Positions 13,662 to 57,000 of a stretch of DNA of 64,000 nucleotides are shown in pieces. Origin of the DNA: Alphaproteobacteria bacterium (GTDB lineage Bacteria; Pseudomonadota; Alphaproteobacteria; CAAHEQ01; UBA3637); assembly GCA_045660045.1 (NCBI GenBank), contig JAZRDB010000013.1, positions 612-64,611 of the forward strand, given 5' to 3'. Positions within the stretch are counted from its first letter, which is position 1. Every line of letters starts with the position of its first letter. The notes beneath the pieces are model-generated. The model saw only the letters and a program-made list of their open reading frames with translations, was not told where the DNA came from and did no database searches. Made by a program: the position numbers and the translations under genes.

Positions 13662-13673
13662 TTTAATTTTCCT

Positions 13674-14216
13674 TTATCTTGTGAAAACATCATGTAAAAT
13701 TGGGCGAGGAAAGGCATTTACAGCCTGCAGGCCAATATCTTTTGGACAATAAGCTGGTGCAGGAGCAATCGCTTGCTTCCAAGTATGCTTTTGTTCCAAG
13801 GGTACAGACAACCTTGTGCATGCCAAGTCCACCATCGGACGGATAGCACGTAAATATCCACCAATATCTCTGCCTTTTTTTAAACTCAATAACCAATCCA
13901 CTACTTCGGCAGCTTGTTGAGAATGGTTTGACCAATCCGGGTGTTTTCTTAAGGCCTGGTTAAAAGTACGGGCCAATTCGTTGCGGTGTCTTAAAACAGC
14001 ACCGGAAGAAATGGATTTTCTGATGCTGGAAAAAGCATTCAACGTGCTGTCAATTGTTAAAATCATCATTTCGGATGAAAAAGATAAATCAGCGCTGTGT
14101 TGCGTTATGTCCTGTTCAAAATGCGCATCTAATTGGCGTTGTTGATAGGGGGATGTAGTTGTCATTTTTAAACTCCTTAAATTTAAACTCAAAAAGTGAG
14201 AAATATTATAGCACAA
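13674..14216 (-). CDS. Hypothetical protein (likely start MTTTSPYQQ… near 14166)
   Basis: ORF with no recognisable motifs. It sits between mipZ and the htpG promoter region. Confidence 0.4.
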   Translation of the reverse strand: MCYNISHFLSLNLRSLKMTTTSPYQQRQLDAHFEQDITQHSADLSFSSEMMILTIDSTLNAFSSIRKSISSGAVLRHRNELARTFNQALRKHPDWSNHSQQAAEVVDWLLSLKKGRDIGGYLRAIRPMVDLACTRLSVPLEQKHTWKQAIAPAPAYCPKDIGLQAVNAFPRPILHDVFTR

Positions 14217-14305
14217 AAAAGGTCTTTTTGCAAGAGAAATTATTCATCCCCTCTTGCGTTTTTTGGGTGGGATGATTATATACATATGCAACAAAGGAGT
14301 TTGAT

Positions 14306-39364: not shown

Positions 39365-39794
39365 AAAAATTACCTTATATACAGATGGCGCATGCTCTGG
39401 AAACCCCGGACCTGGGGGCTGGGCGTGCGTTTTAGTTTATAAGGAAACAGAAAAAGAATTATGTGGTGGCGATCCAGAAACCACAAACAATCGTATGGAA
39501 ATGACGGCCGTTATTGAAGGCTTAAAGGCTTTAAAAGAACCTTGTGCAGTGGATCTTTATACCGATAGCAAATATGTGCTTGAAGGGGCGACAAAATGGT
39601 TGGCTGGATGGCAAGAAAAAGGTTGGAAAAAAGCCGATAAAAAGCCGGTTTTAAATGTGGATCTGTGGCAAATTCTTTCAGCTTTGTTGCCGCAACACGA
39701 AATTACATGGCATTGGGTTAAAGGTCACGCGGGAGATCCATATAATGAGCGCGTAGATGCATTGGCTGTTGAACAAAGAGATTCCTATAAATAA
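39342..39794 (+). CDS. rnhA: Ribonuclease HI
   Basis: 150 aa beginning [22 protein letters not shown]… with …TNNRMEM…, the RNase H catalytic motifs. Confidence 0.9.
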
Positions 39795-41083
39795 CAAAGT
39801 GTATATATTATTAAGGCCAACCATGGCAAACGTGTGACCCACCAAATCTTAGGGGCTTTTGGGCTGTCCAATAATTTAAATATTTTTTCTTGAAAAAGCA
39901 ATTGAATTGCAAAAGCAAGCAAGGTTAAAATTACAAAACTAAAACAGGGGGCGAGTTTAAGTAAAATATTGCTGCTTGTACTCAGAAAAGTAAGATAGGG
40001 TCGTGGTGTGATTGCAAGGAATAAGAATGTCAATAACGGAGAAGCTGGGATAAAAAGAACGCCCAAAATCATCAAAATGATTGTCCATGTTCTGCTCATT
40101 GGTTGAATTAAAAATGGCCACAATTTGTTGATTTGAGATAAGTCGTTTTGATATACATAAAATAAAGCACCACACAATACAATTATGCCTAAAACAGTTG
40201 TAAGAATAAGCATTTGTTTTGTTTGTGCGCGAAATTTTTGGCGAGAGGACAGGGGAACCCTGGCCCAGTAAATGGGTGCGCCTGAAAGCAGGAAAAACAA
40301 AAGGCAGGCTTGCAGAATTTGTAGCGTAGAAAGTGGCACGTCGGGAATAGGCATGTCTTGCGGGATCACCTTTGGTTCAATTACATAATAATGATAATAG
40401 GTTCGAACAATAAAACGATTTGCATTTTGTGTTTGAGGCAAAACGAATGTAGCTCGTTTATTTTCAATTTGTATATCCAAATCCAAGGGTTCTTTATTTG
40501 GACCATATACAATCAATGTGCGCGGAGGCCGTTCAAAATCCAAGACGACTTTGGTGTTGTCGCGGTCGTCCAGTTGTGCATAAGCGGCGACATTGTTGGA
40601 ATACATCGGAACTGGCGTGTTAGAGAGGGCTAACGTGATGGGAGAACACTCGGGTGTTAAAAGTGCCAAGGCCGTGCCCAAGGTGGTGGACAGATGAATC
40701 GGAGCTGTGACGCATTGGTCATCCTTGCATGCGTGCCAAGATCCTTCAACATCAAAGGTGATGGGTTTTATGGGCCTGTAAGTTAAAACCGCGCTGATTG
40801 GGTAAAGTGGAGCCTGAGGATAAGGTTGTTTGAAAGGTGTGAATAAAGCGGTTGGAAGTGGTTCGGATGTTGTGATTTTCAGGTCGGGCACGCCCAGTTG
40901 CCATTCCTCCTTGGGTAAAGCGCGAATGCCCAGATATAAAGGCCCATTGACACGCAAATCAGTCGTGCATGAGATCAATTCTACATCGCCAAAAGGTGTT
41001 TGTTGAACGGATGGTATGGTTTCTTGAGCTGTTGCGCTGACACCGAATAAAAGTAAAACAAAAATAAAAAGTTTTTTGATCAT
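39785..41083 (-). CDS. Hypothetical exported/integral membrane protein
   Basis: 432 aa with a signal peptide, a ~230-aa periplasmic region and then multiple TM helices. No assignable family. Confidence 0.4.
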
Positions 41084-41136: not shown

Positions 41137-41170
41137 AGACCTGTGATTAACCACTTTGGAGGATTATACC

Positions 41171-41722
41171 ATTACTCAAACTTTTGAACGAGGTGACGCG
41201 CGGACGCCCAATACAAACAAAGATGAACCGCGTATAAACGAACGTATTAATGCAGCACAAATCAGATTAATCGATGAAAATGGCATGAATGTAGGCATCG
41301 TGACAAATCGCGAGGCAATGCGTCGTGCCGACGAAGCAGGCTTGGACTTGGTGGAAATTTCATCCACACCGGCCGGATCTGTGTGCAAAATTATGGATGC
41401 GGGCAAATATAAATACGAATTGCAAAAGCGTCGGGCGGAAGCCAAGAAAAAGCAAAAGGTGCAAGAAACCAAGGAAATCAAATTCACGCCAAACATTGGT
41501 GATAATGATTACCAAGTGAAAATGCGTAACGCCAAGAAATTTTTGAGTGAGGGCAACAAAGTGAAATTCACATTGCGTTTTAGAGGGCGTGAAATGTCCT
41601 ATCAAGATTTGGGTGAAGCCGTTTTGAAACGGGCGGCCGAAGATGTGGCCGATATTGCCAAAATTGAGCAAAGTCCAAAATTGGAAGGACGTAATATGGG
41701 CATGTTGGTTGCCCCGAAATAA
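41171..41722 (+). CDS. infC: Translation initiation factor IF-3 (probable AUU start codon)
   Basis: Strong similarity to IF-3 across the N- and C-domains. An in-frame ATT at 41171 lies 8 nt downstream of a GGAGGA SD, matching the conserved autoregulatory AUU start. The ORF track begins at a TTG at 41156. Confidence 0.9.
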
Positions 41723-41738
41723 AAGATTTAAATCGTCA

Positions 41739-41773
41739 AAACGCCGTCGGAAATTTCCTGCGGCGTTTTTTTA
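41739..41773 (+). terminator. Rho-independent terminator after infC
   Basis: Hairpin AACGCCGTCGG…CCTGCGGCGTT followed by TTTTTTT. Confidence 0.6.
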
Positions 41774-41867
41774 TTTGAAAAAATGATATTTTTTTAAAAA
41801 AAGTAGTTGCTTTCATTAAAAAAAGTATGTAGAGTGAAGAAAAGGGATTTTTAAAAGGGAGGATTGT

Positions 41868-44800
41868 ATGCGAAAATTTGTGCGGGTTCTAGTTTTGGTA
41901 GCCACATTAATTGGGATAGCTTGTTTCTCTTCTTTTTCGCAGGCTGCTGATACACCAAAATATGCCTGGGGTGATGTAACGATTAATGGACGAACGATGT
42001 ATATTGTGGATGGAAAGCCTTATTGGGCAGCTAAAGATGGTGGTTTTTATTATGATACACCCAATGATTTTTGGCCATCAGGTTTTGTTTCTGGCATGAC
42101 AAAGGATACGTCATGGAGTTCGGCAAATTTAGGCTCTGGAGCATTGAAAACAACAGGTAAGTTAGGACGAGAGTATCCTGCCACGGCTAAAAAAGGGGTT
42201 ATTTATGATGCGGATGGAAGAACGCCAATAGGAACCTTGGTTGGAGGAAAGGTCAAATTTTGGACATATGGAACGGAAATGGTTCCAAATTCATTCCAAC
42301 CCACTTCAAATCCAACACCGATTCTGGCTCCAGCCCCAACTATTGCTTCTGGTGGTTCGGCGGCAAAAATAGCGGGCGGTTCTAGTGCTAGTACAGCTGG
42401 GCAAGGAAAGCCCATAAGCATTGCAACGGGTTCGAGCACCACAAATGGTGGTAGCAGCGCCCCGAAAACAAGCGCTGGATCAGCTTCATCTGGATCGGCA
42501 AAAGGAAGTACGCCAGCGAGTGGTGCGGCGGCTCCTGCAACACAAGGGGCATCAACCCCTGTTACTCAAGGGGCGACGGTGCCTGCAGCACAGAGAACGA
42601 GTGGTCCAACTCAAGGAGGATCTAGTCAAGTTGCTCAAGGACAAACCGGTTCAGATGCGCCTCAAGGACTTATTAAGGGCCATGATGGACTATATTATTC
42701 GGAAATTTCTTCTGTAAATGATACGAAAGGACGCGCGGCCGCTTCGTTGGAAAATCGGATGATTTTAGGGACAGGTATGACAAAAAGCGAAGCTATTCGA
42801 CACGCGGGAGCAGATGCTGTTGGTTCTGCAGATAATGTTTTTAATAAAGCTGTTAATTCCTTAAAGAGTGATTTTGAGTTTTATGATGCAACCTCGGGCG
42901 ACGTTTTTACTTATGTCCCATCTGAACAAACATGGATGGTTTCACAAACAGAATATGGTGGCGGTATCGATCAGTATGTGCGTAATTCTGGATTGAGTGA
43001 TGATCAACAGAAACTGCTTGTAAGTTTTCCTGCAACAAAATCAACAGCAGAGATTGGTAAGGAGTATAGTAATGCAACAGCGCAACGCGCTCAAGCGATA
43101 GAAGCAATGTGGCAGGAGCGTTTGGGGAGAGTCGACAAAAAGGCAGCAGTGATGCCCGAGGCGGCAACTGATGCCCCAAAAGCTGAGACAACGACGGATG
43201 CTTTCGTTGCTGCGAGAAGTCAAGATACAGCTCCAACCAATACAGCGGCTGCAGCACCAAGTAGCACGGATACATCTGTTTCTACTGAAAAAACACAAGT
43301 TAAGGAGGCGACAGGTGATACTAGACCTACAGGAGACAGAGATGTGATGAGTAGTGGGGTTATTCCCACAAATAAAACTCAATCTGAACCTGTGGGAGGC
43401 ACTGGAAATAGAACGCCATTGGAAACAGAAAAGCCTGTTCCTGGTGCAGAAGAAACGACACCAGCTGGGTCAGCAAATCAAGATACAGATTCGTTGGGGG
43501 CCCCAGCAGGTGGTGATACTGGTGGTAAGCGAGCCCGGAAAACAGAGAGTTCTGAAAAAAAGCAACCTAAAGAGAAAGGGAACGAGTCTTCTGCTGAAGG
43601 CGATAAACGTGGGGGCGGAAGTGCTGAACAAGGAAAAGGAGAGGGGGGACCTAATCAAGAAGGGTCTGAATCTGAAAAAACTGATGGAGGATCTGGTTCT
43701 GGCGATAGTGAGGCACAGCAACCCGACAAACAAAACAGTCCATCTAAAGAGAAAGGGAACGAGTCTTCTGCTGAAGGCGATAAACGTGGGGCCGGAAGTG
43801 CTGAACAAGGAAAAGGAGAGGGGGGACCTAATCAAGAAGGGTCTGAATCTAGAGAAGCTGGAGAAGAAGCAACAGGTGGTGGACGAGGTGCTGCGGCTCA
43901 GGCGACAGGTGCCAAAGTTCCTACGCAATATCTGAGCGAACAAATCAATTCTGATAACATACGGATGTTGGGTTTTGACAATGTGTTTGGTGAAAAGTCG
44001 ATATGGAAGATGGATGGGGATAAGCAACCCAAATTTGATTCAAAGACTGGCACGATTGAATTTACGAATAATACGCAAAGGCAAAGATTGTCGGATGTTC
44101 ATGGGGTAACCGTCAATGAAGATGGTAAGGTTGTGTCAAATGGGGATGCATGGGGTGATGCAACGGTTAACGCGATGAAGAGTTTGAGTAGATGGAGTAG
44201 TGATTTGACGAATTTAAAAAATACTAGTCAAGAAGTACGGACTGCTCAAAGTAAAGTGAATAAGTTGGAACAGGCAGTTGATAAAGCTAAAAGTAAGATC
44301 AAGTATCCTGGCGAAGATGGAGGTGACTCCCGGAGCAAGCTTATTGAAGCCCAAAAAAAGCTAGATGCTGCTGAGGAAGAGTTGAATAAAGCGCAAGAGA
44401 AGCAAGGGGAAGCTAAGGCAAAAACGGAACAGACGATTAATGCTGTAAGAGATGTTGAAAAGGCGGCCAAAGATCGAGCGAACCAAGCTGTTAGCAAAGC
44501 AGCCGAAGGGGATACCTCGCCTGATACCTCTGCTGATGGATCCACCTCTCAAACAGGCGCGTCTACCCCGATGCCTGAGCAGAAGAAAGATTTTGAAACG
44601 TTTCAGGCAAACTTTACTAAAGCGATAGAAGACGGCGATTATGATGCTGCGGATCAATATATCAACGAAGCACAAAAAAATGGCCTTATAAATGACTCCG
44701 AAGCAAACGAAATGAAAAATGCCACAACTCAGGCCAAAAATGCGCAAGGTTTAGCGGGCAAGATGGCTGATGAGGCAGCAGCGAATGAGGCTGATCCAGC

Positions 44801-45599
44801 GAGCAAAGTTGGATCGGTGGATTTGACGGACCCGATACGTTTGGTGCTGGCGATTTTAATACCAACGCTAGCGGAGGATCATTTGACGTTGCGTGGTGAT
44901 ATTAACATTAAAGCTGGCGAAATTGGCGAGGCTGTTGGTGCTGTTGACAGTACGGCATTAGGCACGGACCAAGGTGAAGATGCTAGCCGTGCGACGACGG
45001 TTGTTGCCGGGGCTCAAATGGTGGCACAATTGTTGCAAGCAGTGACGGTGGACTTGAGTCTGCTGAGCGAGGAAGTGAAGTTCGACGAAGAAAAAGATGA
45101 AGAGAAAGAAGAAACGCCGACCTACACAAACGTTGGGACGACAGATTTAACAACGAAGAAGACACAACAAGAAAGTTATCGGGATGAAATAAATGATGAT
45201 TCTTCGGATGAAGATGATGAGGATGCAGAAGCGAAGAAGAAAGCGGAGGAAGAAGAAGCAAAGCGCAAGGCCGAAGAGGAAGAGAAGAAGCAAATCGATG
45301 AAGCGACGAAGAAAACAATTGAAACTCGTCGGGCCGAGTTGATGAAGCAATATGTGAATGGAGCCATTCAAATTGCAGAAGGAATGAATGCGATTTCCAG
45401 CGACTTTGCCTCTCGTGCGGAGGTGCTTTCGGATTTTAGTGAGGGAATCCAAACAGAATCAGCAGGTTTTGGTTTGGCACAAGATGTGGGTAGATATGTG
45501 TTATTTGAGACGTTAAGAGGGTTGGCATTGTCATCCGTTCAAATGGGTGTTCAGGCTTCTCGTCTCTTATTTGAACAGGAGGTTAGCGATGCTGAATAA
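41868..45599 (+). CDS. Large secreted repeat protein (1243 aa); first gene of the T4SS-associated block
   Basis: Signal peptide (MRKFVRVLVLVATLIGIACFSSFSQA) and long Ser/Thr/Gly/Ala low-complexity tracts. It has near-identical 59-aa tandem repeats, coiled-coil segments and a poly-acidic/lysine block (DDSSDEDDEDAEAKKKAEEEEAKRKAEEEEKK). GGGAGG RBS. Confidence 0.6.
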   Translation: MRKFVRVLVLVATLIGIACFSSFSQAADTPKYAWGDVTINGRTMYIVDGKPYWAAKDGGFYYDTPNDFWPSGFVSGMTKDTSWSSANLGSGALKTTGKLGREYPATAKKGVIYDADGRTPIGTLVGGKVKFWTYGTEMVPNSFQPTSNPTPILAPAPTIASGGSAAKIAGGSSASTAGQGKPISIATGSSTTNGGSSAPKTSAGSASSGSAKGSTPASGAAAPATQGASTPVTQGATVPAAQRTSGPTQGGSSQVAQGQTGSDAPQGLIKGHDGLYYSEISSVNDTKGRAAASLENRMILGTGMTKSEAIRHAGADAVGSADNVFNKAVNSLKSDFEFYDATSGDVFTYVPSEQTWMVSQTEYGGGIDQYVRNSGLSDDQQKLLVSFPATKSTAEIGKEYSNATAQRAQAIEAMWQERLGRVDKKAAVMPEAATDAPKAETTTDAFVAARSQDTAPTNTAAAAPSSTDTSVSTEKTQVKEATGDTRPTGDRDVMSSGVIPTNKTQSEPVGGTGNRTPLETEKPVPGAEETTPAGSANQDTDSLGAPAGGDTGGKRARKTESSEKKQPKEKGNESSAEGDKRGGGSAEQGKGEGGPNQEGSESEKTDGGSGSGDSEAQQPDKQNSPSKEKGNESSAEGDKRGAGSAEQGKGEGGPNQEGSESREAGEEATGGGRGAAAQATGAKVPTQYLSEQINSDNIRMLGFDNVFGEKSIWKMDGDKQPKFDSKTGTIEFTNNTQRQRLSDVHGVTVNEDGKVVSNGDAWGDATVNAMKSLSRWSSDLTNLKNTSQEVRTAQSKVNKLEQAVDKAKSKIKYPGEDGGDSRSKLIEAQKKLDAAEEELNKAQEKQGEAKAKTEQTINAVRDVEKAAKDRANQAVSKAAEGDTSPDTSADGSTSQTGASTPMPEQKKDFETFQANFTKAIEDGDYDAADQYINEAQKNGLINDSEANEMKNATTQAKNAQGLAGKMADEAAANEADPASKVGSVDLTDPIRLVLAILIPTLAEDHLTLRGDINIKAGEIGEAVGAVDSTALGTDQGEDASRATTVVAGAQMVAQLLQAVTVDLSLLSEEVKFDEEKDEEKEETPTYTNVGTTDLTTKKTQQESYRDEINDDSSDEDDEDAEAKKKAEEEEAKRKAEEEEKKQIDEATKKTIETRRAELMKQYVNGAIQIAEGMNAISSDFASRAEVLSDFSEGIQTESAGFGLAQDVGRYVLFETLRGLALSSVQMGVQASRLLFEQEVSDAE
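43567..43850 (+). repeat. Tandem direct repeat inside the 1243-aa ORF (two ~107-bp copies, 177-bp period, 1 mismatch)
   Basis: Copy 1 at 43567-43673 and copy 2 at 43744-43850 are identical except gggggcgg/ggggccgg. The 177-bp period is in frame and encodes KEKGNESSAEGDKRG(G/A)GSAEQGKGEGGPNQEGSES. Confidence 0.9.
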
Positions 45600-46668
45600 A
45601 ACACTAACAGTGCTATGTGCAGGAGCTTTATTGAGCACCACGATGTTGATGCCGGTGTCATCCGCTTGGGCGGAAGGAACGTGGCAAAAGGGCGGTTTGG
45701 CAACCAACCAGGTATCCGGAGGAACAGCAAAGGCACAGAAAACTATTACGGATGTCTTGGCATATTGGGGATTACTCTCAAACAGCATCTTATTTGCGAC
45801 ATCTTGGATACCAATACACTTTTTACCTGGTATTGTGTGTACTTGGGCTACTATTATTCCCGCATGTAGAGCATACCTTGCGGGTGGTTCTACTCAGCAT
45901 GGCTTGAATATTGATGTTGCAGGTGCGGCATTGGATGGGGTGTTGTTGTATGATGCAATGCATAAAAAGGCTGTATGGAGTGAAGATATTCCTAATTTGG
46001 AGGCCCAGATTCGTCAGATTGGAAGCGCCGCTGATTTAGAGCAAGAATGTGAAGATGATGAAGAGGGGAGCTGTAATGCAACAAATGCAACATTAGATAA
46101 GACAGAAGTGTACATTAAAACTCTAAAGAACGTAGGATTGGAAGCAATTGAAGATGTGGCCGGGTCGATATTGAAGACGCCGACAGAGTTGATTAGTGCT
46201 GGCCCTTACATTCAAGAAGGTTTTGGTTCTGAGGTTGAAGGTATTGATGTGAGTAAAAGTGTCGGTAAAAAGACATCAAGTGGTACCATCTTGTGGAGCG
46301 ATTATTTGCCCGATGAAAACGACAATACAACGAATAATGGTACACGCACTACGACTGCGGTTAAAAAGGAACGAACAGAAACAGAATTAAACGATATTAA
46401 GGATCGCAAGTTGGCGCATTTACAATTGACAGGCACGGCTGGAGTAGCGCGTGCGGATATGGGTGCGACAGTGGCAAGATCCGAGAAAGCAGCGTTTGAT
46501 CGATTAAGTTCATATGTGGGGTCGGGTGATGGATTGATTGCCAATATTAAGGTTTTAACTGGTTTAGATTTAACCTTGAGTCAACGATTGAATACGCTGA
46601 ATATGTTACAAGGTCAACAAGTGGCAAACGATGCGGCAAGCGCGCTACAGTTTGTGGAAACCAAATAG
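45589..46668 (+). CDS. Secreted protein 1 of 5 (359 aa), T4SS-associated candidate
   Basis: Start at the ATG at 45589 behind a perfect AGGAGG RBS. Signal peptide MLNKTLTVLCAGALLSTTMLMPVSSAWA. Contains a hydrophobic segment and an acidic/Cys segment. The start overlaps the upstream stop. Confidence 0.5.
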   Translation: MLNKTLTVLCAGALLSTTMLMPVSSAWAEGTWQKGGLATNQVSGGTAKAQKTITDVLAYWGLLSNSILFATSWIPIHFLPGIVCTWATIIPACRAYLAGGSTQHGLNIDVAGAALDGVLLYDAMHKKAVWSEDIPNLEAQIRQIGSAADLEQECEDDEEGSCNATNATLDKTEVYIKTLKNVGLEAIEDVAGSILKTPTELISAGPYIQEGFGSEVEGIDVSKSVGKKTSSGTILWSDYLPDENDNTTNNGTRTTTAVKKERTETELNDIKDRKLAHLQLTGTAGVARADMGATVARSEKAAFDRLSSYVGSGDGLIANIKVLTGLDLTLSQRLNTLNMLQGQQVANDAASALQFVETK

Positions 46669-46677: not shown

Positions 46678-47589
46678 ATGAGATTGAAAAAAGTTTTAAT
46701 TATATGTTTTGTTTTTTGTTTAATCTGGCAACCTTCTGTTGGATTTTCAGCGTTTATGTGGAAACCAAATTTTTATCAAAGTCTTATGGAAACGATTGTT
46801 GGATTTTTGGCACGTGAATGGAATCGGCACACAGAAACCATTCACTATGATGTGACTAATGGTTTGGAAAAAATTAAGTCCAATATTGGGATGTATCGTG
46901 ATAAAGGTGATTGTGGTATTTCTGCAACGGGGAATTCGGGATGTGACTTGACAACGCCCGAACAAGGGGCTGAAGAGGATGCAGCTATGGATGCTGAAGC
47001 GGCAGTGATTCCAGATAGTACGATTGCGATTATTACTGAAAGTGAGGATGACGGGACAATTACGCTGGATGGCAAAAGCGATAAGGAGGAAAGCAAAAAC
47101 GAAAAAGATGATACAATTGGCAGCTATGTGGTTGGTAAAAAGGGAGATAAATTTGATCAGGTGCGTGCAAACGTGACCGAGTATATCTTTATTTCTACTA
47201 AAGAAAATGCTGAGGATGTGGATGCCGATTGTCGATGCAACAAGGGAACGGGAACGGTTTGTGAAGCGTCCGAATGTGCTCAACAACGTCAAAATGATGC
47301 TTTGTATCAGGCTTCTTTGGGCGCGTCCAGTACGGCGGATTTCAATTTACAACAAATGGATAAGCGTTACCAAAACGTCACAAAGGCCGTTTCCGAAATC
47401 AATGAAGTGAGTACAATTGCGGATTTTGTGGGTAAGATGGGGCGGTTGTCTGTTTACGCATCGGATGCGGTGGCAAATATGATGACTTTGCAAACACATG
47501 ATTTACGGGCGCAATCTTACCGTAATTTGGTGTTTGGTGGAATTAATCCGGTTGATTTGTCCAAATTAGGCAAAGGAGATAAAAAATGA
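46678..47589 (+). CDS. Secreted protein 2 of 5 (303 aa)
   Basis: Signal peptide MRLKKVLIICFVFCLIWQPSVGFSAF and an acidic middle region, with a helical C-terminal region reminiscent of VirB5/TrbJ-type proteins. Confidence 0.5.
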   Translation: MRLKKVLIICFVFCLIWQPSVGFSAFMWKPNFYQSLMETIVGFLAREWNRHTETIHYDVTNGLEKIKSNIGMYRDKGDCGISATGNSGCDLTTPEQGAEEDAAMDAEAAVIPDSTIAIITESEDDGTITLDGKSDKEESKNEKDDTIGSYVVGKKGDKFDQVRANVTEYIFISTKENAEDVDADCRCNKGTGTVCEASECAQQRQNDALYQASLGASSTADFNLQQMDKRYQNVTKAVSEINEVSTIADFVGKMGRLSVYASDAVANMMTLQTHDLRAQSYRNLVFGGINPVDLSKLGKGDKK

Positions 47590-48365
47590 GAAGATTTTTT
47601 GGGGTGATGGCTGTAATTGTTTGTTTGCTGTGTGGTAGGAGCGTGAGAGCCGTTGAAGAGATGGCGAATATGTGGACGCCCATCCCTATAGTGGATCCAG
47701 TTATGATTGGTGATTCAATCCGAGGACTTACTGCTAGTATTTTGGCATTAACAAAAGCAGGACCTGAGCCAGAATTGGGGGCTGTTTTGAATGTTCAACA
47801 ACAAGAAGTTGGTGCTTTGGAAGATGGAGATGAGTCTTACCGTGTGGATGAGGGAACAGGATCTTCGGATGGATCTGGTGATTTGGCAATTTCTGCTTAT
47901 GAGTATATGAAAGAGAAGGTATTTACAGATTCCAAAAAGACGCCTTATGCACCATTAAACCGAAAATTGTCGAATGGAGCCGATATGAAGAAGGTGGTCA
48001 AGGAAATGTTCTTTATAGAAAATGAAGCAGATAATACGGAAGCAAAACAGGCCGAAATTGTGAAAAACAGGACGGAATATTTAACGACCGTTGGTAAAGA
48101 ATATACAAGATTGGCTTATGAAATGCACAAAAAAATTGCTGATGATATGTCAGCGGTTAGTGCAGATATCAACGGAAATGGTTCTATTGGTGCAGTTGCA
48201 GGTATGGATCAAACATGGAAGGCTGTCAATAAGGCGTTGATTGCAGATATCGGAATGCAAATTCAATTGATGGAGTTGGATGCGGCGAAATTTTTATCTG
48301 TTCAACCGATCATGATTATGTCGGAGAATCGTCCAGAAACGAGTAATCAAGGATCCAATGATTAG
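47586..48365 (+). CDS. Secreted protein 3 of 5 (259 aa)
   Basis: Signal peptide MRRFFGVMAVIVCLLCGRSVRA. The start overlaps the upstream stop (ATGA). Confidence 0.5.
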   Translation: MRRFFGVMAVIVCLLCGRSVRAVEEMANMWTPIPIVDPVMIGDSIRGLTASILALTKAGPEPELGAVLNVQQQEVGALEDGDESYRVDEGTGSSDGSGDLAISAYEYMKEKVFTDSKKTPYAPLNRKLSNGADMKKVVKEMFFIENEADNTEAKQAEIVKNRTEYLTTVGKEYTRLAYEMHKKIADDMSAVSADINGNGSIGAVAGMDQTWKAVNKALIADIGMQIQLMELDAAKFLSVQPIMIMSENRPETSNQGSND

Positions 48366-48375
48366 GAGGTATGTG

Positions 48376-49512
48376 ATGAAAAAGTTATTATTAGGTTCGT
48401 GTATCCTTTCTTGCTTGTTGTTAGTGGAAATAGGTGGATATGCAACAGCTGCAGACAGTGTTGCGTCGGACAGCAAAACAACGGGCGCATCGACAAGCCG
48501 TGCAACACAATACACCGATGCAAACAGTGGTTATGTGAAAAATTCTTCAGAGGGGATGAATAAAACAAAAAATAATCCGAAAAGCGAAGAAGGTGCGGAT
48601 CCTGTGTCAAAAACGGCAAAAGATGCTGATTATTCGCCAGATGCAGGGAATAAAGCCGCTCAAGTTGATATGGGAATTTCAATTGCTTCTGCGGCGTTAG
48701 GTGTTGTAGAAGCTATTATAGGTGCAAGCTTAGACCAGATGATAAGAGAATGGGTTACGACTGAAGTGTTAAGCATTGCAGTGAGCCCTGAAGTTCCTCT
48801 TCATAACGAATCAATAGCTTTTGGTTGGGGACTTCAATTTAACCCAATTGCAACCGCCGTTACCCTTGGGCATGCGGCTGTAAATAAATTTATGCGAGAT
48901 GCGACAAATATTACAGCTTCGTTCACTGGGGCTGAAGGTTTTGTGACAGATAAATGGGTGGGGCCTCATCCAAGGAATACAACAACGGCCATTATGGGGG
49001 ATATTAGTGTTACATCCGAGAAATTTGATGCGTTGACATTTGATCCAAAAGAATACGAAGGTTTGAAAGATGCTGATAAAGCTTCTGCGCGCCAGTTGAT
49101 GGATTATCGGTCTGAGCAGTTAATTCAGGATCAACGTTCATTGTCAAATGTGGCTACTGCGCAATGGGGTATTTTGTATCGTGCACAACAACGTTCTATC
49201 AAAGGATTGGCCGGTGCATTGGAATTGAAGTCTCAATTGACAGCACTGGGTGAGATCGAAAAAAAGATTTCGGCTGATTATAAAAATAAACCAAGCGCTT
49301 TGAATACGGTGGCTTCACGTCGTGCTTTATATGATGCCTTATTGTTATTAAAAATGAATGTAATGGCTGCGCGTACAAAATTGCGTTCGGAAACTTTGGA
49401 ATTGGATTTCAAGCCGATGACAAGGGAGCCTGAAATTATGGAGGACGATGAAGATCCAACCCCTCAGAATGTACCGGCTGGTCCACCTTTGTCACCAAAG
49501 GAAACTCAGTAG
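48376..49512 (+). CDS. Secreted protein 4 of 5 (378 aa)
   Basis: ATG at 48376 behind an AGGAGG RBS. Signal peptide MKKLLLGSCILSCLLLVEIGGYATA. Confidence 0.5.
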   Translation: MKKLLLGSCILSCLLLVEIGGYATAADSVASDSKTTGASTSRATQYTDANSGYVKNSSEGMNKTKNNPKSEEGADPVSKTAKDADYSPDAGNKAAQVDMGISIASAALGVVEAIIGASLDQMIREWVTTEVLSIAVSPEVPLHNESIAFGWGLQFNPIATAVTLGHAAVNKFMRDATNITASFTGAEGFVTDKWVGPHPRNTTTAIMGDISVTSEKFDALTFDPKEYEGLKDADKASARQLMDYRSEQLIQDQRSLSNVATAQWGILYRAQQRSIKGLAGALELKSQLTALGEIEKKISADYKNKPSALNTVASRRALYDALLLLKMNVMAARTKLRSETLELDFKPMTREPEIMEDDEDPTPQNVPAGPPLSPKETQ

Positions 49513-49527: not shown

Positions 49528-50691
49528 ATGAAAAGAATATTGTTTTTTGGCGTGTGTTTTGTTGCTTTGTTTAGTACAACAGCTGAAGCGTTGCGCTTTG
49601 GTACGACGCCAGTTGTGCCGATTGAAATGAATACCTTAACGAAGTTTTTGCCGTCACATAATGAGGCTTTGGATAAAGCCTTAGAAGTACATAATTTGAT
49701 GACGGAATTGCCGTCTATACAAACTATGGCCGAGCAGCAAGAAAAGATGAAAAAAGAATCTCGTAAGATGAAGAAATATTTCGAGAACTTATTGAAATGC
49801 AATGAAAAGCGTTTTGGTCGTTTTAAAAATTCAAAAGAGATTTTGAAAAAGGTACGGGCCGCATATCAAGAACGCACGAAAGATTTAAAAGATGACGAGG
49901 GATATTATGCAGAAGACAGTATTGTACCTCGTTCTTTGGCTGAACGTGGCTATCTATGGGATAAAAAAAGGGACATTGAACAAGAAATCATGACGGATGC
50001 TTTGACCAATGGCCGTAAGTGGGGCGGTGAGTTGGTTAACAGAAAAAAACAAGATGTGCCAGAAGATATGAGAATGAAGATGACTGGTACTGGCTTAGAA
50101 GAGCTGATGCTAGCAGAAGATAGTACAAAAAATGCAGATGTTGCAGAAATGGATATGGATAAGACCTTGAAGCAAATGCAAGAATCCTTTATGAAGCGGT
50201 TGGCTGGTGTTGGATTGACTTTTCCGGAATTTAATCCGGCCCAAACGACGGATATCAGCAAAGTTCGCAAAGAATTGAAAGAGTTAAAAGATCAATATAT
50301 TGTTGAGGCAAAAGAATATATTGTTAAGTTGGATGAACAAGATGCAGCGCACCCACGAGCGGTAGCAAAACGCGCGGCAAGAACACGTAATAAGGCGCGA
50401 GTTTTAACGAATGTGAAGGAACAATTCCCAGAGGCATTTGCCGAGATGGAACAATTTGATCAACAAACACCGCAGCAACAGCAACTGGCTGTTATTAATG
50501 CGTTGGAGAAAGATGCAAATGGAACAGTTTATTTGACCGAAACAAATGCATTAGAGGTTGATCAACGTATCAGCGAGGCAAAAGCAAATAAAGCGATGTT
50601 GAAAACTTTTACCGATATGGCGGATGATATGTTGGAAGAAATGCGTTCAAAAAGGCCAGAGCAAGAATTTGATTTCAGTGTTTGCTCATAA
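49528..50691 (+). CDS. Secreted protein 5 of 5 (387 aa, Lys/Glu-rich coiled coil)
   Basis: Signal peptide MKRILFFGVCFVALFSTTAEA. Highly charged helical protein. Confidence 0.5.
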   Translation: MKRILFFGVCFVALFSTTAEALRFGTTPVVPIEMNTLTKFLPSHNEALDKALEVHNLMTELPSIQTMAEQQEKMKKESRKMKKYFENLLKCNEKRFGRFKNSKEILKKVRAAYQERTKDLKDDEGYYAEDSIVPRSLAERGYLWDKKRDIEQEIMTDALTNGRKWGGELVNRKKQDVPEDMRMKMTGTGLEELMLAEDSTKNADVAEMDMDKTLKQMQESFMKRLAGVGLTFPEFNPAQTTDISKVRKELKELKDQYIVEAKEYIVKLDEQDAAHPRAVAKRAARTRNKARVLTNVKEQFPEAFAEMEQFDQQTPQQQQLAVINALEKDANGTVYLTETNALEVDQRISEAKANKAMLKTFTDMADDMLEEMRSKRPEQEFDFSVCS

Positions 50692-50702: not shown

Positions 50703-51332
50703 ATGGCCAATTCAGGAAGAACACCTTGGCAATTGACACGCCTGCTGATGATTCTTTGTTGGCTATTGTGGATTATAACATTTTTTATAACGGTCACTTT
50801 GTTTCAGGCTGTTCTGCAGATTCACGTTGTATCGCAAGTTCTTCAAAACGTGGAAAAAAGCTTTATGTGGTTTAGCCAAGATTTAGTTCGAGCCACGCCG
50901 TTGAATGTTGTTGATCGGGGGCGTTTGGATGAAATGTTGGTACGGTATTATTTGGAAATGAGGTATTCTGTGATTCCTGATCGAGCCGAAATGGAACATC
51001 GTTGGGGTGAGAATGGTATTGTGGCATATTTGTCCAGCCCTGCTGAATATAAGAATTTTAAACCAAATTCAAGTTTTTTTGACAAGGTTGATAATATGCA
51101 ACCGAGTGTGGTGGATATTTTGAAAGTGGATCGCAAAGGTACCTATTTTACTGTTGACTTCGACGTCTATACTTTCGATGGATCCACAAATTGGAGAAAA
51201 GAACCACGGCGCGTTGTGGTACAATATACCTATGCATCGGGGCGTAAGTTGTTGGGGAAATCAATATCAAATCCATTTGGTTTTATTGTAACGCGGGTGG
51301 ATGAATCTGACAGAAAATCGGTGACGCAGTAA
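50703..51332 (+). CDS. virB8: Type IV secretion system protein VirB8 (copy a)
   Basis: 209 aa with a short cytoplasmic N-terminus, one TM helix (LLMILCWLLWIITFFITVTLF) and a periplasmic NTF2-like domain with VRYYLEMRYS and …VVVQYTY… motifs. Confidence 0.7.
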   Translation: MANSGRTPWQLTRLLMILCWLLWIITFFITVTLFQAVLQIHVVSQVLQNVEKSFMWFSQDLVRATPLNVVDRGRLDEMLVRYYLEMRYSVIPDRAEMEHRWGENGIVAYLSSPAEYKNFKPNSSFFDKVDNMQPSVVDILKVDRKGTYFTVDFDVYTFDGSTNWRKEPRRVVVQYTYASGRKLLGKSISNPFGFIVTRVDESDRKSVTQ

Positions 51333-51401: not shown

Positions 51402-51578
51402 ATGCAAAAAATAGTTTATACATGTTTGGCTGTAGCAGCCATTGTTTTGGGGGCTTGTGGAACGATTTATGAAAAAGCACCGGTTGGAATTGGCACGGAA
51501 TATTCCGAGTTGAAAAAATCCCCTTGTGCATGTTTGGAGTTAAAGAAAGCACCAGAAGTGCCAGAATGGTTCTCGTAA
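51402..51578 (+). CDS. virB7: VirB7-like small lipoprotein
   Basis: 58 aa with lipobox IVLGAC. Its size and its position between two virB8 genes and upstream of virB9 match rvh-type loci. Confidence 0.5.
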   Translation: MQKIVYTCLAVAAIVLGACGTIYEKAPVGIGTEYSELKKSPCACLELKKAPEVPEWFS

Positions 51579-51594: not shown

Positions 51595-52302
51595 ATGGCG
51601 GATCAAGAACAAACGTCTTCTCATCCACGCAATGCGCGTGAGGTTTTGCAAGAAGAGCGCTATCTTTGGATGGCGCGTGCGTTTGTTGTGATGATGGTTT
51701 TGGCCATTATTTGTGATGTGATTTTGTTGATCGCTTTGGCAAATGTGACGCCTGTGTTACGTATTCAGCCATTTTATTTGGAAATTCAAAACAAAGACCA
51801 ACAAATTGTTTCGGTAAAACGTCCCTCGCTTGAAACATTGAATTCGGATACCTTAAAAGAATCTTTGGTTCGTCAGTATATCTTGTCGCGTTTTGGTGTG
51901 GGGTCTGATCTGACGGAACTGGAGGAAAGATGGGGACCCAAAGGGCCTGTGTTTTGGATGAGTGATCAATCTGTGTATGATGAATTTGTTCAAAAACAAT
52001 CTGTTCCTGCTCAAAATAAAGCTCGTAAAGATAATTTTATTCGTGATGTGCGTGTGTTAAGTGTGAACAAAACGCATGATGGTGGGCCGATGGGATCGGA
52101 TATGTGGCAGGCTGAATTGGAATTTCAAGATACCGACAGAACAACCACCAAACCGATTATTTCTAATTGTGTGGCAAATATGGCCACTGCTTTTCGTCCA
52201 ACAAAACCCGGTTTGACATGGTCAGATCGTCTTAAAAATCCACTTGGTTTTGTTATGTTGGATTTTGGTATTAAGTGTACCCAACAAAAAACGAAAAAAT
52301 AA
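51595..52302 (+). CDS. virB8: Type IV secretion system protein VirB8 (copy b)
   Basis: 235 aa with a TM helix (FVVMMVLAIICDVILLIALANV) and an NTF2-like domain (…LVRQYILSRFGVG…WQAELEFQD…). Confidence 0.7.
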   Translation: MADQEQTSSHPRNAREVLQEERYLWMARAFVVMMVLAIICDVILLIALANVTPVLRIQPFYLEIQNKDQQIVSVKRPSLETLNSDTLKESLVRQYILSRFGVGSDLTELEERWGPKGPVFWMSDQSVYDEFVQKQSVPAQNKARKDNFIRDVRVLSVNKTHDGGPMGSDMWQAELEFQDTDRTTTKPIISNCVANMATAFRPTKPGLTWSDRLKNPLGFVMLDFGIKCTQQKTKK

Positions 52303-52377
52303 TATTTTTTTACTGGACTTTCTTTTTGTTTTTAGATAAGCTGAAATAAAGCGGTGTCTAGACATAAGGAGGAACCG

Positions 52378-54054
52378 GTGAAAAAAAAGATATTTTTTAG
52401 GGGAGTTTTGCTTGTTTTAACAGGGGTTTTAGGGGCCTTTGCTTTGCCAGCTGTTGCTCAAATGAATTTACCAACAGATCCTCAAGCTCAACAAGTAGCA
52501 GATGCTATTGCTGGCGCTTCGGGGGAATATGATGAGGTGAATTTGGATTACATCCACCCACTTGGTATGCAACAAAAAGCATGGAATAATCCTTTGGCAC
52601 ATATGGGATCTGGACAAAGTAAACCAGGTTATTCGAAATATAATTGGACACCAGACACTGTGTTGCCTGTGCGTTTGCGTGAAGGAATGATGACTTTGAT
52701 CAATTTGCCAACATGGGAGTTGATTGAAAAAGTTCATATTGGCGCGCCGGAATCATTTAATGGGGAAGTTGTTTCTCCAAACTCAATGCTTTTATATGCT
52801 GATCCTTCGTATTTGGGCGTGGATGGAAATATGATTATTTTTGGTCGATCCGGCAATCGTTATGTGTTCTATTTGCGTAGTGAGACATTTAACACAGATA
52901 AGATTACACAATCTGTTGTGGATGTGTTGGTTGGACCACGTTGGACACCCGTTGCGGATGGGGGACAAATGGTTAATGGCAGTGGCGCTTCTTCTATGGC
53001 TTCAATGCCTTTAATGGCAGCTGGTTCACCGATTTCGCGCGGTGTCAGTGGAGGAAGTTCTGCAATGGCAGTTAATTTGGCAGACGAATGGAAAAATAGC
53101 GTGCCAATGGATCCAGAAGCATTGAAGTTTGATTTGGATATGTTTTTACCAAATCCAGATGATGTAGATATTGCCCCAGACAATGTGTGGCGTGATAATA
53201 TCTTCACATACATTGATTTGGGACCAAAGGCATTAACAATGGTACAACGACCAGTTGTGAGTTTGATTGTTCAAGATACAGAGGTGCCCGTCGGATTTAG
53301 AACACGTGGTCCGAACAGCCGTTTGATTGTTGTAGAAGCTATTGGTGATTTGGTCTTGCGAAATGGCCAAAAAGTGATTTGTATTAAATTGCGTCGTGAT
53401 CCCGCGGCTGGTTTGGAATATACCGATTATTCCGGCTTTAATGAAAAACCATATGCTTATAACCAGCAATTACCTGTTCGGGGTCAAGATTTGCCGAACC
53501 CAGAAGTAACGTTGTATGGTGGTACTGTGTTACATGGTCAAAATCCATATGCTCCAGCGCAAAATGGTGGCACAATGAACTTGGCTTATGCCACAGAAAC
53601 AGGTGGTATGAATCCGTATGCGGGTGCAATTAACCCATATTGTGATGATACAACGGGGGCTAATCGTTGTGGTGGTACAGCCGCATGGCAACCAATTCAC
53701 GCCATTCCAAGTAATGTGCGTAATTCGTCTGCAGCCCATGCAAATATTGATGCAATTCAAGCAAATCGAAATGTGATTATGCCAATTGCCGCAAAAGAAA
53801 ATATTGCATTGGAGTTTGGTACAGCTGCCGAAATCGCGGATTTGGAGAAATTGTGGGAACAGATTTATTCCAACAATGCTGATTTATTGGCTGGATATGA
53901 TCCATATTATTCCGCAGATACATCAGCAACGGGTGATATGGTTGATTTGTTCCGTTTGCGTGTTGGGACTGTCAAAGATGCCGAAACGGGTGATGCGTTA
54001 TGTCGGAAATTGGGGCGTCGCGGTTATTCATGTTCGGTGGTCAGAATTAAATAG
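52378..54054 (+). CDS. virB9: Type IV secretion system protein VirB9 with a Gly/Ser-rich insertion and a C-terminal SPOR-like peptidoglycan-binding domain
   Basis: GTG start at 52378 behind an AAGGAGG RBS gives the signal peptide (V)KKKIFFRGVLLVLTGVLGAFALPAVAQ; the ORF track starts at 52354. It has a VirB9/CagX N-terminal domain (…TLINLPTWELIEKVHIG…RYVFYLRS…) and C-terminal domain (…FTYIDLGPKALTMVQRPVVSLIVQD…ICIKLRR). A ~200-aa extension follows, ending in a SPOR-like motif (DLFRLRVGTVKDAETGDALCRKLGRRGYSCSVVRI). Confidence 0.75.
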   Translation: MKKKIFFRGVLLVLTGVLGAFALPAVAQMNLPTDPQAQQVADAIAGASGEYDEVNLDYIHPLGMQQKAWNNPLAHMGSGQSKPGYSKYNWTPDTVLPVRLREGMMTLINLPTWELIEKVHIGAPESFNGEVVSPNSMLLYADPSYLGVDGNMIIFGRSGNRYVFYLRSETFNTDKITQSVVDVLVGPRWTPVADGGQMVNGSGASSMASMPLMAAGSPISRGVSGGSSAMAVNLADEWKNSVPMDPEALKFDLDMFLPNPDDVDIAPDNVWRDNIFTYIDLGPKALTMVQRPVVSLIVQDTEVPVGFRTRGPNSRLIVVEAIGDLVLRNGQKVICIKLRRDPAAGLEYTDYSGFNEKPYAYNQQLPVRGQDLPNPEVTLYGGTVLHGQNPYAPAQNGGTMNLAYATETGGMNPYAGAINPYCDDTTGANRCGGTAAWQPIHAIPSNVRNSSAAHANIDAIQANRNVIMPIAAKENIALEFGTAAEIADLEKLWEQIYSNNADLLAGYDPYYSADTSATGDMVDLFRLRVGTVKDAETGDALCRKLGRRGYSCSVVRIK

Positions 54055-54062: not shown

Positions 54063-57000
54063 ATGGCTGGTAGTCACGAGAGTTTATCAGAGCAATCAAG
54101 ACGTAGAACCTCATGGATTTTATCTGTGTTGGGGTTGATTGTGTTAATTCTCTTTGTGGCGGTTTTGTGCTCGATGCGCAAAAAAAGCACTCAGGTTGTG
54201 CAACGCGAGGATCGTCCAAGTTTTGTTGTTCAATCAACATTCGGAGATGACTCAGATTTCAGTGGAACATTACCTGAATTTGGTGTGCGTAATGCCCAAT
54301 TAGTGGTTACGCCTGATAATGTTGATTTGTCACAGGTTGTTTTGGGATCTCAAGCAGAAGCTGCCTTGGTATTGCGCGCTGAAAATGGTCCTTTAGTCTT
54401 TTTGCAAAAATATCTTGCAGAAGCGCCAGAAGGTGGCTTTATGTTGACTGGTCCTTGTATGGAAAAAACACAATTAGAAGAGGGCGAGGAATGTTTATTG
54501 AAAGTAACTTGGGCACCTATTACAGTTCAAACTATTCAAAACACATTGACAATTGTATGGCGAGAAGATAATGCTCGTGTGTTTCAAGATGAAAGAACGC
54601 AGATTCAATTGAAAGCCAGCTCGACAGATTCCAAGGAATGTGTGTGCTGCGAAATTGAAAAAGACAAAGATCCAAAGGTGCCACGTAAGGTAGTTGGCAT
54701 TGATGGTCAAGAGCGTGAATTAAAAGATGGCGAAAAAGTTGTTGGCGAAGTTATTTTGGATGAAGAGGGAAATGTTGTCGCGATTGTTGAGCCAGAACGT
54801 GTTGCTTTGGGCTTGAACAACGAATATTTGGGCCGTGTGACGGATCGTCGGACGGTTGAAGATAAAAATGGCGAAGTGCTAGGACGGTTATTGGGAGATG
54901 ACACGCTGGTTGATTCTGAATTTAACGTCCTGGGTGCCGCTGTCCCATTGGTTTCTGTGTTGGATGCTCAAGGCGTTGTTATTGGGAAGATGGTGGCCGA
55001 TGATGATGGAGCTCGTGTTGTGGATGCGGAAGGAAATGTTATTGGTACACCTCGTGTAGATAAATCGGTGGTGGATAAAGCTGGTTTCCAAATTGGTATG
55101 TTACGTGATTGGGGCGCAGCGTTGGATTTATCGGGTAATTACATGGGTGTGATTTTACCAACAGCCGCGGTTATTGGTACAGATAAAAAGATTATGGGCT
55201 ACATCCAACAAAACGGTTTTGTCACAAATGATGCAGGCGCTTTGGTGGGCGGAGTGGTCCCCAAAGGTGCGGGTGTTGGAACTGGATGTCGTTCATATGG
55301 AACAGTTGCATTAACGGGCCAAGTCAAAGATACATATGGTCAAGTGATTGGTCGTGTGTTATTGGATGGGGCTGTTGTTGATACGAATTTCAACGAAATC
55401 GGTTCTGTTGTGAATCAAGGTTTGATTGTCAACATGAAGGGAGATGTTGTTGGTTTTGTCAATTCTGAAGGGAAAGGGGTTGATGGTAAAGGTAATTTGA
55501 TGGGCTGTGTTTCGCCAAATGGCATGGTGGCTGCTGGGAAAAAGGTTGTTGGTGGTGTGATGCAAAAAGGATATGTAACAGGTGAAACTTGTGGTGTTCT
55601 TGGTTCTGTTTATCCAAATGCTCAGGTGATGTCTGCCGAGCTACGTGAGATTGGTAAGGTGCGTGCTGATGGGTATGTCATTAATGGTAATAACAAAAGA
55701 ATAGGAGTTGTTGTGCCGCATGGAACAGTTTTGGCTGAAGGATGTCGTTTGGTTGGCGTGATTTCTGTCACTGGACAAGTATTGAATCAACAAAATATGT
55801 CTGTTGGGTGTATTAATATGGAGAAGAAAGCGATTGATACCGAGGGACGAGAAGTCGGCAAAATTACGCCAACAGGCCCTGTTTTGGCAGCAGATGGTTC
55901 TTTGGTTGGTCGTGCACGGTATGATGGTCGCATTGTTGATAAAACAGGCAAGATTATTGATTGCGTGAGTCCAGAAGGTACAGGAGTTGGAACCAAACGG
56001 GGCGTTGTTTTGGATGAAAATGGTTTGCCAACAGGATGGACTGCTTTGGCTGGGAAGTGTTATAATGATCGCAACGAAGAAGTAGGGACAATCGCTTTTA
56101 ACGGATGGGTTTCGGATAAAGAAGGTAAAATGATCGGTTTTATGCCTGCAGATGGTGTTGTATTTGGATTGGATGGTGTGGTCTTAGGAAGCTATAATCA
56201 ATTGATGGGAACTGCAACCGATACAAAAGGTGATCCGCTGGGACGTGTGATGCCGGATGGAACTGTGTTAGATTCAGATGGGCATAAGATTTTGGGATCT
56301 TTAATTCCTGAAAGTGCAACGTTTCTTAGTTTGGATGGCTCTGTTTTAGGAACGTTAAATTATGAAGGTCGATTATTAAATGAAACAGGACAATCTGCAG
56401 GGCGTGTTTTATCTGATGGTGCCGTGTATAATGCCGAAAACGTTTTAATTGGTGGCGTGATTAGATCTGGGATTGTTTTGGCGGCTAATGGATCAGAGGT
56501 TGGATTTGCCAATGTCAAAGGGGATGTTTTGTCAAAAGGAACACGTATTGCCAATTTATTGCCCAATGGATTGGCTGTGACGCCGGATAATCGAGTGTTA
56601 GGTCGTTTGTGGGATAATATGACTGTTGCCGTGTCGGCTGGTGGTGTGATTGGCCCAGTTGTGCTGCGCGCGACTTCTGGCGATAACTCGACATATCAGG
56701 CTGCCGTGTATGATAGAAATGGTAGTTATGTTGGAGCGATGTCTGGCTATGGTGTTTTGTTGAACAGTGATGGGCGCTTGGGCGGCATTGCTTTCCCTGT
56801 CACAATGGTTGTTAATATGGACCATGAATTAATTGGTTGGGTTGGCTTTAGAGGGATGGTGATAAATGCAGAAGGACAAGTCATTGGTCAATTAAGTCAA
56901 AATGGTTTAGTGATGAACTCGACAGGAGCGATTGTTGGAACAGTATTATCTAAAGGAACGGTTGTTGATGGGCGTGGTGGTTTTGTGGGGCGTGTAGCTG

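Follow-up and report, generated by a model that had tools for sequence, protein, structure and literature searches.

The Rickettsiales-type type IV secretion systems (T4SSs), termed rvh (Rickettsiales vir homolog) systems, have been described as lacking only virB5 (PMC2653234), and this leaves the contact role open. In Rickettsia, islet C of the rvh genes has the order virB8a, virB7, virB8b, virB9, virB10, virB11, the first VirB8 being degenerate (PMC2653234). Variation of exposed T4SS parts has been described in Bartonella Trw, where diversified copies of such parts (amplified trwL and trwJ) set host-specific adhesion (PMC2883598, PMC3406051), and in Helicobacter pylori CagY, where in-frame recombination in repeats alters the exposed part of a T4SS protein (PMC3585145, PMC5954226). 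Here we analyzed a 64,000-nucleotide (nt) stretch of DNA (the window) from contig JAZRDB010000013.1 of an alphaproteobacterium, and in it a gene at 41868–45599 on the + strand, hereafter T, which encodes a protein of 1243 amino acids (aa) and stands before the genes of an rvh-like T4SS. T belongs to a small unnamed family whose members combine a conserved signal peptide, a variable passenger, and a C-terminal helical module. The passenger is exchanged wholesale between close relatives and has not merely diverged.

The T open reading frame (ORF) is intact from its ATG through the stop codon, and the gene is real. Full-length syntenic orthologues of 717–1403 aa are present in at least six other loci, and T is therefore not a pseudogene, an outcome that the sequence-only reading had named as one that would refute it. 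The GC content of the gene is 46–48%, versus 41–42% in its flanks. The gene and the parts of its product are the following, with relative loci designated L and family members P.

41857..41862, + strand: GGGAGG Shine-Dalgarno sequence, 5 nt 5' of the T ATG, from direct reading of the sequence.
41868..45599, + strand: T gene, from the ORF list, with syntenic orthologues in L001/L008, L005, L006, L007, L011, L017, L019, L023, and L025.
41868..41945, + strand: signal peptide, aa 1–26, sequence MRKFVRVLVLVATLIGIACFSSFSQA followed by AD, from hydrophobicity and the family N-termini.
41889..44852, + strand: replaceable passenger cassette of 2.96 kb, from blastn against L001/L008, BLASTP, and composition.
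41946..42302, + strand: aromatic-rich orphan segment, aa 27–145, beginning YAWGDVTINGRTMYIVDGKPYW..., from composition.
42303..42662, + strand: S/T/G/A/P mucin-like linker 1, aa 146–265, from composition.
42663..43142, + strand: second orphan globular-looking segment, aa 266–425, from composition, with no Pfam match.
43143..43925, + strand: low-complexity linker 2, aa 426–686 (T/S/A/P, then G/E/K/S), from composition.
43926..44816, + strand: semi-conserved stalk, aa 687–983, from BLASTP against the family set.
44817..45596, + strand: conserved C-terminal helical module, aa 984–1243, from alignments, profile search, and AlphaFold2 (AF2).
45075..45296, + strand: acidic and E/K-rich variable linker within the C-terminal module, aa 1070–1143 (DDSSDEDDED-AEAKKKAEEEEAKRKAEEEEKK), from alignment.

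The C-terminal module carries the motifs DPIR..L.P....INIKAGEIGEAVGAVD.TAL and A..MV..LLQA.TVDL.LLSEE, followed by RR.EL..QY.NA.IQIAEGMNAIS..F..RA and GRYVLFETLRGLALSS.QMGVQA.RLL. T holds both family signatures, QIAEGMNAIS...RA and ETLRGLALSS.QMGVQA.RLL, at its C-terminal end and matches the tail profile with an E value of 1.2e-92. In word-indexed homologue searches, low-complexity words dominated, and only T itself or fragments were returned; the family was found by an exhaustive profile search. Among 1.84 billion representative proteins, the tail profile detected 68 at E ≤ 0.001 and 67 at E ≤ 1e-10, the count of 67 referring to clusters at 50% identity. The members range from 291 to 1827 aa in length. 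In all of them the module, of about 230–260 aa, is C-terminal and ends no more than 53 residues from the C-terminus, and in most the core of the signal peptide reads M-x-NFLKVLLLGT, which is unusually conserved. The passenger between these two ends spans about 60 to 1550 aa, is not conserved, and is composed of S, T, G, A, P, N, and Q at a median of 56%; one member of 319 aa (P0025) has little beyond the signal peptide and the module.

When the tail was modeled by AF2 from a 61-sequence multiple sequence alignment, a helical bundle was predicted, whose last four helices have predicted local distance difference test (pLDDT) values of 80–94; the model obtained with 7 sequences had a pLDDT of 52 and was too poor for use. 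Searches of Pfam, NCBIfam, and PHROGs with the T protein, four of its segments, and 57 family members yielded no meaningful match; among the 57 members, neither an enzymatic or toxin domain nor a consistently present Pfam or NCBIfam family was seen, and the tail profiles gave only chance matches (E ≥ 0.03) to PDB sequences. Literature searches returned no description of this family or of the T4SS of these rumen lineages, and the present description appears to be the first of this family.

The passenger of T is itself composite. The signal peptide before it was assigned by rule, from its n-h-c layout: residues 1–26/27 form the only hydrophobic segment of the protein and end with SQA-AD in a Sec-like manner. 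In 50-aa composition windows, residues 27–145 hold 6–9 Phe, Trp, or Tyr per 50 aa, and this segment has no Pfam match at E ≤ 10 and no counterpart in any family member. The linkers 146–265 and 426–686 are of low complexity and rich in S/T/G/A/P/E/K. Within linker 2, a direct-repeat search detected a 129-nt repeat (43555–43683 and 43732–43860, 92% identical, 177 nt apart), which comprises fewer than two copies and for which Tandem Repeats Finder gave none. Residues 27–686 as a whole matched none of the sequences recovered. The stalk (residues 687–983) is partly shared, with 59% identity to P0029, 53% to the L009 copy, 38% to P0034/35, 35% to P0032, and 28% to the L006 copy, and has no counterpart by BLASTP in the closest relative, L001. 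Its residues 776–870 form a K/E/A/Q-rich helical stretch that, from its composition, may plausibly be a coiled coil. Inside the C-terminal module, the linker 1070–1143 differs in length and sequence among family members; it includes the DDSSDEDDEDAEAKKKAEEEEAKRKAEEEEKK block (residues 1110–1141), acidic and then E/K-rich, and the AF2 prediction has the E/K part helical and the part before it disordered. The signal peptide, the aromatic N-terminus, the S/T/G/A/P stretches, the KE-rich stretch, and the DDSSDEDDEDAEAKKKAEEEEAKRKAEEEEKK block had all been named from the sequence alone, and each was recovered here.

Two minor features of the passengers were also recorded. A 25-nt stretch encoding AWGD(V/A)T(I/V)N is present twice with 88% identity (41962–41986 and 44146–44170, + strand), one copy being in the N-terminal segment and the other in the semi-conserved stalk. 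Several relatives have, after the signal peptide, short D/N-G-x-aromatic-aromatic motifs reminiscent of cell-wall/glycan-binding hairpin repeats, with no profile support.

Comparison with the closest syntenic locus, L001/L008, delimits the exchanged part. The window has 85% DNA identity to L001/L008 over 6.9 kb upstream and 77–87% over more than 13 kb downstream, and the similarity detected by blastn breaks off exactly after nt 41888 and resumes at nt 44853. As proteins, T and the L001 product have tails that are 84% identical and, beyond the signal peptide, nothing else aligns by BLASTP. The same is seen elsewhere in the family, where pairs with 75–96% tail identity have 0% of the passenger in common. 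Smaller changes also occur: L017 and L018 are 99–100% identical in DNA save for an internal cassette of about 600 nt, at 50–60% identity with gaps, and the sole difference between L011 and P0030 consists of three extra copies of a 14-aa repeat. In L025 (ENA ERZ28573572 scaffold_1011, 10001–14837), the interval from infC to gene A, the gene that follows T in the window, holds two tandem family genes, encoding 756 and 858 aa. Their 3' halves lie in a perfect 1482-nt direct repeat (10789–12270 and 13355–14836), which reaches 10 nt into the gene that follows; their 5' halves are unrelated. The sequence-only reading had called the protein a mosaic, which proves truer than the sequence alone could tell, as conservation is limited to the signal peptide and about 260 residues at the C-terminal end, and the rest is swapped. 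A diversity-generating retroelement was rejected as the source of this variation, because the segments are replaced, with gaps and at about 50% identity, and are not mutated at adenines.

The copy in L009 (JGI Ga0310690_10029889, 1–6379), from the same metagenome as L001, has 90–95% DNA identity to L001 in the leader and tail and a different passenger. Upstream of it are a chromate transporter gene, a macro-domain gene, and an unknown gene, and not infC; the contig ends inside the tail, and what is seen may be due to a second locus, to rearrangement in a strain, or to a break in the assembly.

These patterns bear on a first alternative, in which T would be a lineage-specific structural subunit of an enlarged outer-membrane/periplasmic T4SS complex, like the non-VirB components of the Cag machine, and the variable region a fast-drifting spacer with no recognition role. 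The strong conservation of the tail, its predicted helical bundle, and its fixed operon position agree with such a subunit, and the system is otherwise enlarged, with a 2135-aa VirB10 carrying nine beta-flower repeats, a VirB9 with a SPOR match, and five further secreted proteins. Drift fails, however, to account for sharp cassette borders within alleles that are 99–100% identical, for unrelated passengers beside tails that are 96–100% identical, and for tandem copies that keep different heads. Moreover, the 319-aa member indicates that the passenger is dispensable for a core role, yet 500–1500 aa are kept in most members, which argues for a function of the passenger. We regard a structural role with a drifting spacer as unlikely.

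The relatives were recovered through the DNA around a near-identical VirB8 gene and by tail scans of genome and metagenome collections; their loci come from a goat abomasum metagenome-assembled genome (MAG), a yak rumen MAG, a third MAG, and several JGI metagenomes. The sequence-only reading had proposed that homologues be looked for near T4SS loci of related genomes, and they were found there in synteny: in every recovered locus, the T gene heads the same 12-gene block, made up of T, five signal-peptide ORFs (A–E), VirB8a, a VirB7-like lipoprotein, VirB8b, VirB9, a giant VirB10, and VirB11. Its further likening of the protein to those of intracellular bacteria is unsupported, the organisms being uncultured Alphaproteobacteria whose MAGs derive from samples such as goat abomasum and yak rumen. 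The features around T in the window are listed below.

41738..41776, + strand: hairpin and U-run, probable intrinsic terminator, from RNA fold and sequence reading.
45589..46668, + strand: gene A, 359 aa, with a signal peptide; its ATG at 45589 overlaps the T stop by 11 nt.
46678–47589, + strand: gene B, with a signal peptide, of no known family.
47586–48365, + strand: gene C, with a signal peptide, of no known family.
48358–49512, + strand: gene D, with a signal peptide, of no known family.
49528–50691, + strand: gene E, with a signal peptide, of no known family.
50703..51332, + strand: VirB8a, a degenerate VirB8 paralogue, Pfam VirB8 at E 0.008, below the cut-off.
51402..51578, + strand: 58-aa lipoprotein with the lipobox LGAC, VirB7-like by position.
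51595–52302, + strand: VirB8b, from Pfam.
52354–54054, + strand: VirB9/CagX, 566 aa, from Pfam.
54063–60470, + strand: VirB10, 2135 aa, with nine Bflower_2 repeats and TrbI, from Pfam.
60480–61463, + strand: VirB11, from Pfam.

The genes from T through virB11 thus lie on one strand, as had been read from the sequence alone. The order T, A–E, VirB8a, 58-aa lipoprotein, VirB8b, VirB9, and giant VirB10 is found in L001, L005, L006, L007, L017, L019, and L025, and infC is the upstream gene in most loci. In L023, which carries a distant family member (P0063, profile E 9e-21), the same 12-gene order is preserved, with RNase E upstream and not infC. The hidden Markov models (HMMs) of genes A–E recognize the neighbors of P0063, and the gene A HMM matches the gene after the family member in both L022 and L023. 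As infC is replaced by RNase E while the T4SS block is retained, the gene travels with the block and not with infC.

In the window, infC (41156–41722, with IF3_N and IF3_C by Pfam) is separated from T by a hairpin placed right after its stop at 41722 (–20.6 kcal/mol, z –4.55, none of 200 shuffles equally stable), which is probably an intrinsic terminator that divides infC from the T4SS operon. A consensus scan passed over it because its loop is long; the same scan for promoters and terminators gave counts no higher than in shuffled sequence, with no excess of terminators inside the block. At the other end, the ATG of gene A falls within the last codons of T, and genes B–E are tightly packed or overlapping, all on the + strand. 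The position of T at the head of the T4SS transcription unit, of which the sequence-only reading had said that T heads the T4SS block, is well supported by these sequence features, namely the infC terminator, the strong Shine-Dalgarno sequence, the overlap of gene A with the T stop, and the lack of a terminator excess in the block, and it agrees with the constant place of the gene in all recovered loci, the RNase E-flanked distant one included.

The same evidence makes it very improbable that T is a surface or envelope protein unconnected with the T4SS and merely upstream of it. The tail has no sequence or fold similarity to known T4SS proteins, as would be expected of such a neighbor, and L009 shows another upstream context. 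However, the L009 contig stops within the gene, leaving its downstream side unseen, and T stays with the T4SS block when the upstream gene changes (infC mostly, RNase E in L023), its stop overlaps the start of gene A, and gene A follows the family member in L022 too.

Some observations concern the neighboring genes themselves. In L022 (1262–3448, + strand), the gene before the family member encodes a 728-aa Cys-rich protein with no Pfam match; we rejected it as a further family copy, as it looks prepilin-type (N-terminus G-SIMLEVV...). Genes A–E are conserved across all loci, yet match no known family or pTiC58 VirB protein. The N-termini of A and D are weakly similar, with an extra hydrophobic stretch (hhalign 41%), and could be pilin-like. 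DNA similarity to L001/L008 is interrupted a second time, over a shorter stretch, at 48404–48860 (+ strand), the N-terminal third of gene D, and the N-terminal part of the secreted D therefore also varies between relatives. A run of N divides gene E of L025 into two parts of 171 and 233 aa. Two candidate relationships were tried by hhalign and rejected: T and A–E as paralogues sharing a C-terminal domain (T versus A–E ≤16%), and A–E or T as divergent VirB1/2/3/5/6/7/9 (probabilities ≤0.9%).

The T4SS genes resemble rvh islet C of Rickettsia in gene order, the only property compared: the window has the same order, with a degenerate VirB8a (26% identical to VirB8b, E 1e-8) and a lipoprotein between the virB8 genes. 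It differs in that dut, and not virD4, follows virB11, that no virB9a was recognized upstream, gene E having no VirB9 similarity, that VirB10 is five times longer, and that six extra secreted-protein genes, T included, precede the islet. By Pfam, no virD4 was found within this T4SS block. VirB10 is about five times the usual size, its Bflower_2 (five-fold beta-flower) repeats preceding TrbI, and it is conserved, with 86–87% DNA identity to L001 and similarly large relatives (2136, 2048, and 2169 aa). The aromatic N-terminal segment of T was considered as kin of these beta-flower repeats and rejected (BLAST E > 1, no Pfam support). VirB9/CagX has a weak C-terminal match to SPOR, a peptidoglycan-binding domain (E 1e-3, 19.9 bits versus a cut-off of 21), which is unusual for VirB9.

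The minor pilins VirB5, TraC, TrwJ, and CagL share with T a Sec signal, an all-helical conserved part (predicted here), a gene in a T4SS operon, and a proposed contact with the target cell. In contrast to VirB5, no Pfam match was obtained for T, its segments at E ≤ 10, or the 57 members, and the tail aligned to pTiC58 VirB5 with hhalign probabilities of only 0.1–0.3%; TraC, CagL, and TrwJ are not among the 50 Foldseek matches listed, and none of 97 reached E ≤ 0.001. T is also 3–8 times longer than VirB5-type proteins and has a large exchangeable N-terminal passenger. The weak HopQ matches seen in Foldseek were not trusted.

With type V autotransporter adhesins, T has in common a signal peptide, a variable repeat- and linker-rich passenger, and a conserved C-terminal unit. 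Unlike theirs, its tail is predicted to be all-helical and not a beta-barrel; there is no autotransporter Pfam match, and the gene belongs to a T4SS operon. The Xanthomonas XVIPCD effectors of the T4SS likewise combine a variable N-terminal part with a conserved C-terminal domain. They are not known to have a Sec signal, carry recognizable toxin domains, are paired with immunity genes, and attach to VirD4. None of this was seen here, T having a Sec-type signal, and no Pfam family matched T or the 57 members, the XVIPCD model included if the Pfam release holds one. T is thus placed outside any known family, because the VirB5 sequence test failed, no beta-barrel is present, and the Sec signal and the lack of a toxin domain set it apart from XVIPCD proteins.

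The Bartonella Trw system is matched in so far as one relative (L025) has tandem copies with different heads; the Trw variants are, however, small pilin paralogues from known families and differ through point divergence, whereas here a new family undergoes whole-cassette replacement. Similarly, repeat copy-number variants in the T family and a giant VirB10 in the system recall CagY, but CagY is itself the VirB10 orthologue, while here VirB10 is conserved and the variation falls on the product of another, new gene. Functionally, the new family would thus resemble variable exposed T4SS accessory proteins, a kind that is already known.

The reading that we favor, to which we give about even chances, is that T is a T4SS-docked, surface-displayed variable adhesin or target-recognition protein. 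T would be a Sec-exported accessory component of the rvh-like T4SS, carried across the inner membrane by the family-conserved signal peptide. Through its C-terminal helical module it may be docked to the secretion machinery or to the secreted proteins encoded by the five co-transcribed genes, and the long passenger, which combines orphan globular segments with tandem repeats, mucin-like linkers, and helical stalks, would be held away from the cell as a contact or adhesion element for a target cell. The two conserved ends could double as recombination anchors, by which passengers would be replaced whole or in part or altered in length, with a tandem duplication in at least one genome. We infer the contact or adhesion function from the Sec signal, from the fibrillar, repeat-rich, and enzyme-free passengers, from a cassette exchange typical of exposed recognition proteins, and from the Bartonella Trw and H. 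pylori CagY precedents. A surface or adhesin role is favored over that of a classical cytoplasmic effector because of the lack of an enzymatic or toxin domain and the Sec signal. From the sequence alone, T had been proposed as a surface or substrate component of the T4SS; the linkage to the T4SS stands, by synteny, whereas the surface or substrate role, like the docking of the tail, continues to be inferred.

Several points weigh against this reading. Placement of T on the cell surface or on the T4SS has no experimental or homology basis, and T contains no beta-barrel or lipid anchor that would explain a crossing of the outer membrane. Foldseek searches of the tail model against PDB and BFVD returned no match at E ≤ 0.001, only generic helical bundles at E > 0.9, and hhalign found no relation of the tail to pTiC58 VirB1, 2, 3, 5, 6, 7, 8, and 9. 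A disordered region can diverge fast with no positive selection, and the exact identity of the repeat in L025, a short-read scaffold, could be an assembly effect.

Another role is conceivable for the same Sec signal: T may be a Sec-dependent T4SS substrate that reaches the periplasm and then leaves by way of the channel, the manner in which Ptl releases pertussis toxin, with the tail as the signal and the variable part as cargo. The conserved element is C-terminal, the usual place of T4SS signals, the gene is the first of the operon, and dut, not virD4, follows virB11 in this block, Ptl likewise not being known to have a coupling protein. However, virD4 may sit elsewhere in the genome, known T4SS signals are far smaller than a folded helical module of about 250 aa, none of the 57 members has an enzymatic or toxin-like domain, and passengers dominated by linkers, repeats, and stalks are more typical of fibrillar surface proteins. 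A released substrate appears rather unlikely to us.

A bolder proposal, possible but tentative, is that the family provides the missing contact element of rvh-like T4SSs: a helical docking module with interchangeable cassettes, for which the tandem copies and the two conserved ends would supply an inbuilt means of recombination that re-targets the machine to different host or prey cells in the rumen. This would, if true, be a new way to couple a secretion machine to its target. No tip or contact protein is known for Rickettsiales-type T4SSs, and T is a candidate with a clear, testable architecture. The sharp cassette borders, repeat-number variants, and tandem copies offer a natural example of modular surface variation in a lineage of uncultured ruminant-gut Alphaproteobacteria, and mapping of metagenome reads could follow strain-level host or prey specificity through the passengers.

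The other genes of the window are chromosomal housekeeping genes (uvrA, radA, pgm, htpG, thyX, dnaA, lepA). A 1077-aa ORF at 28602–31835 (– strand) carries an LptF/LptG permease domain (aa 6–352) and an LptD domain (aa 650–1011), and is an apparent fusion of inner- and outer-membrane parts of lipopolysaccharide transport, or two genes read through. Between rnhA and infC, at 39785–41083 (– strand), lies a gene whose 432-aa product is a multi-pass membrane protein and matches no Pfam family; it is conserved at this position in the relatives (420–429 aa).

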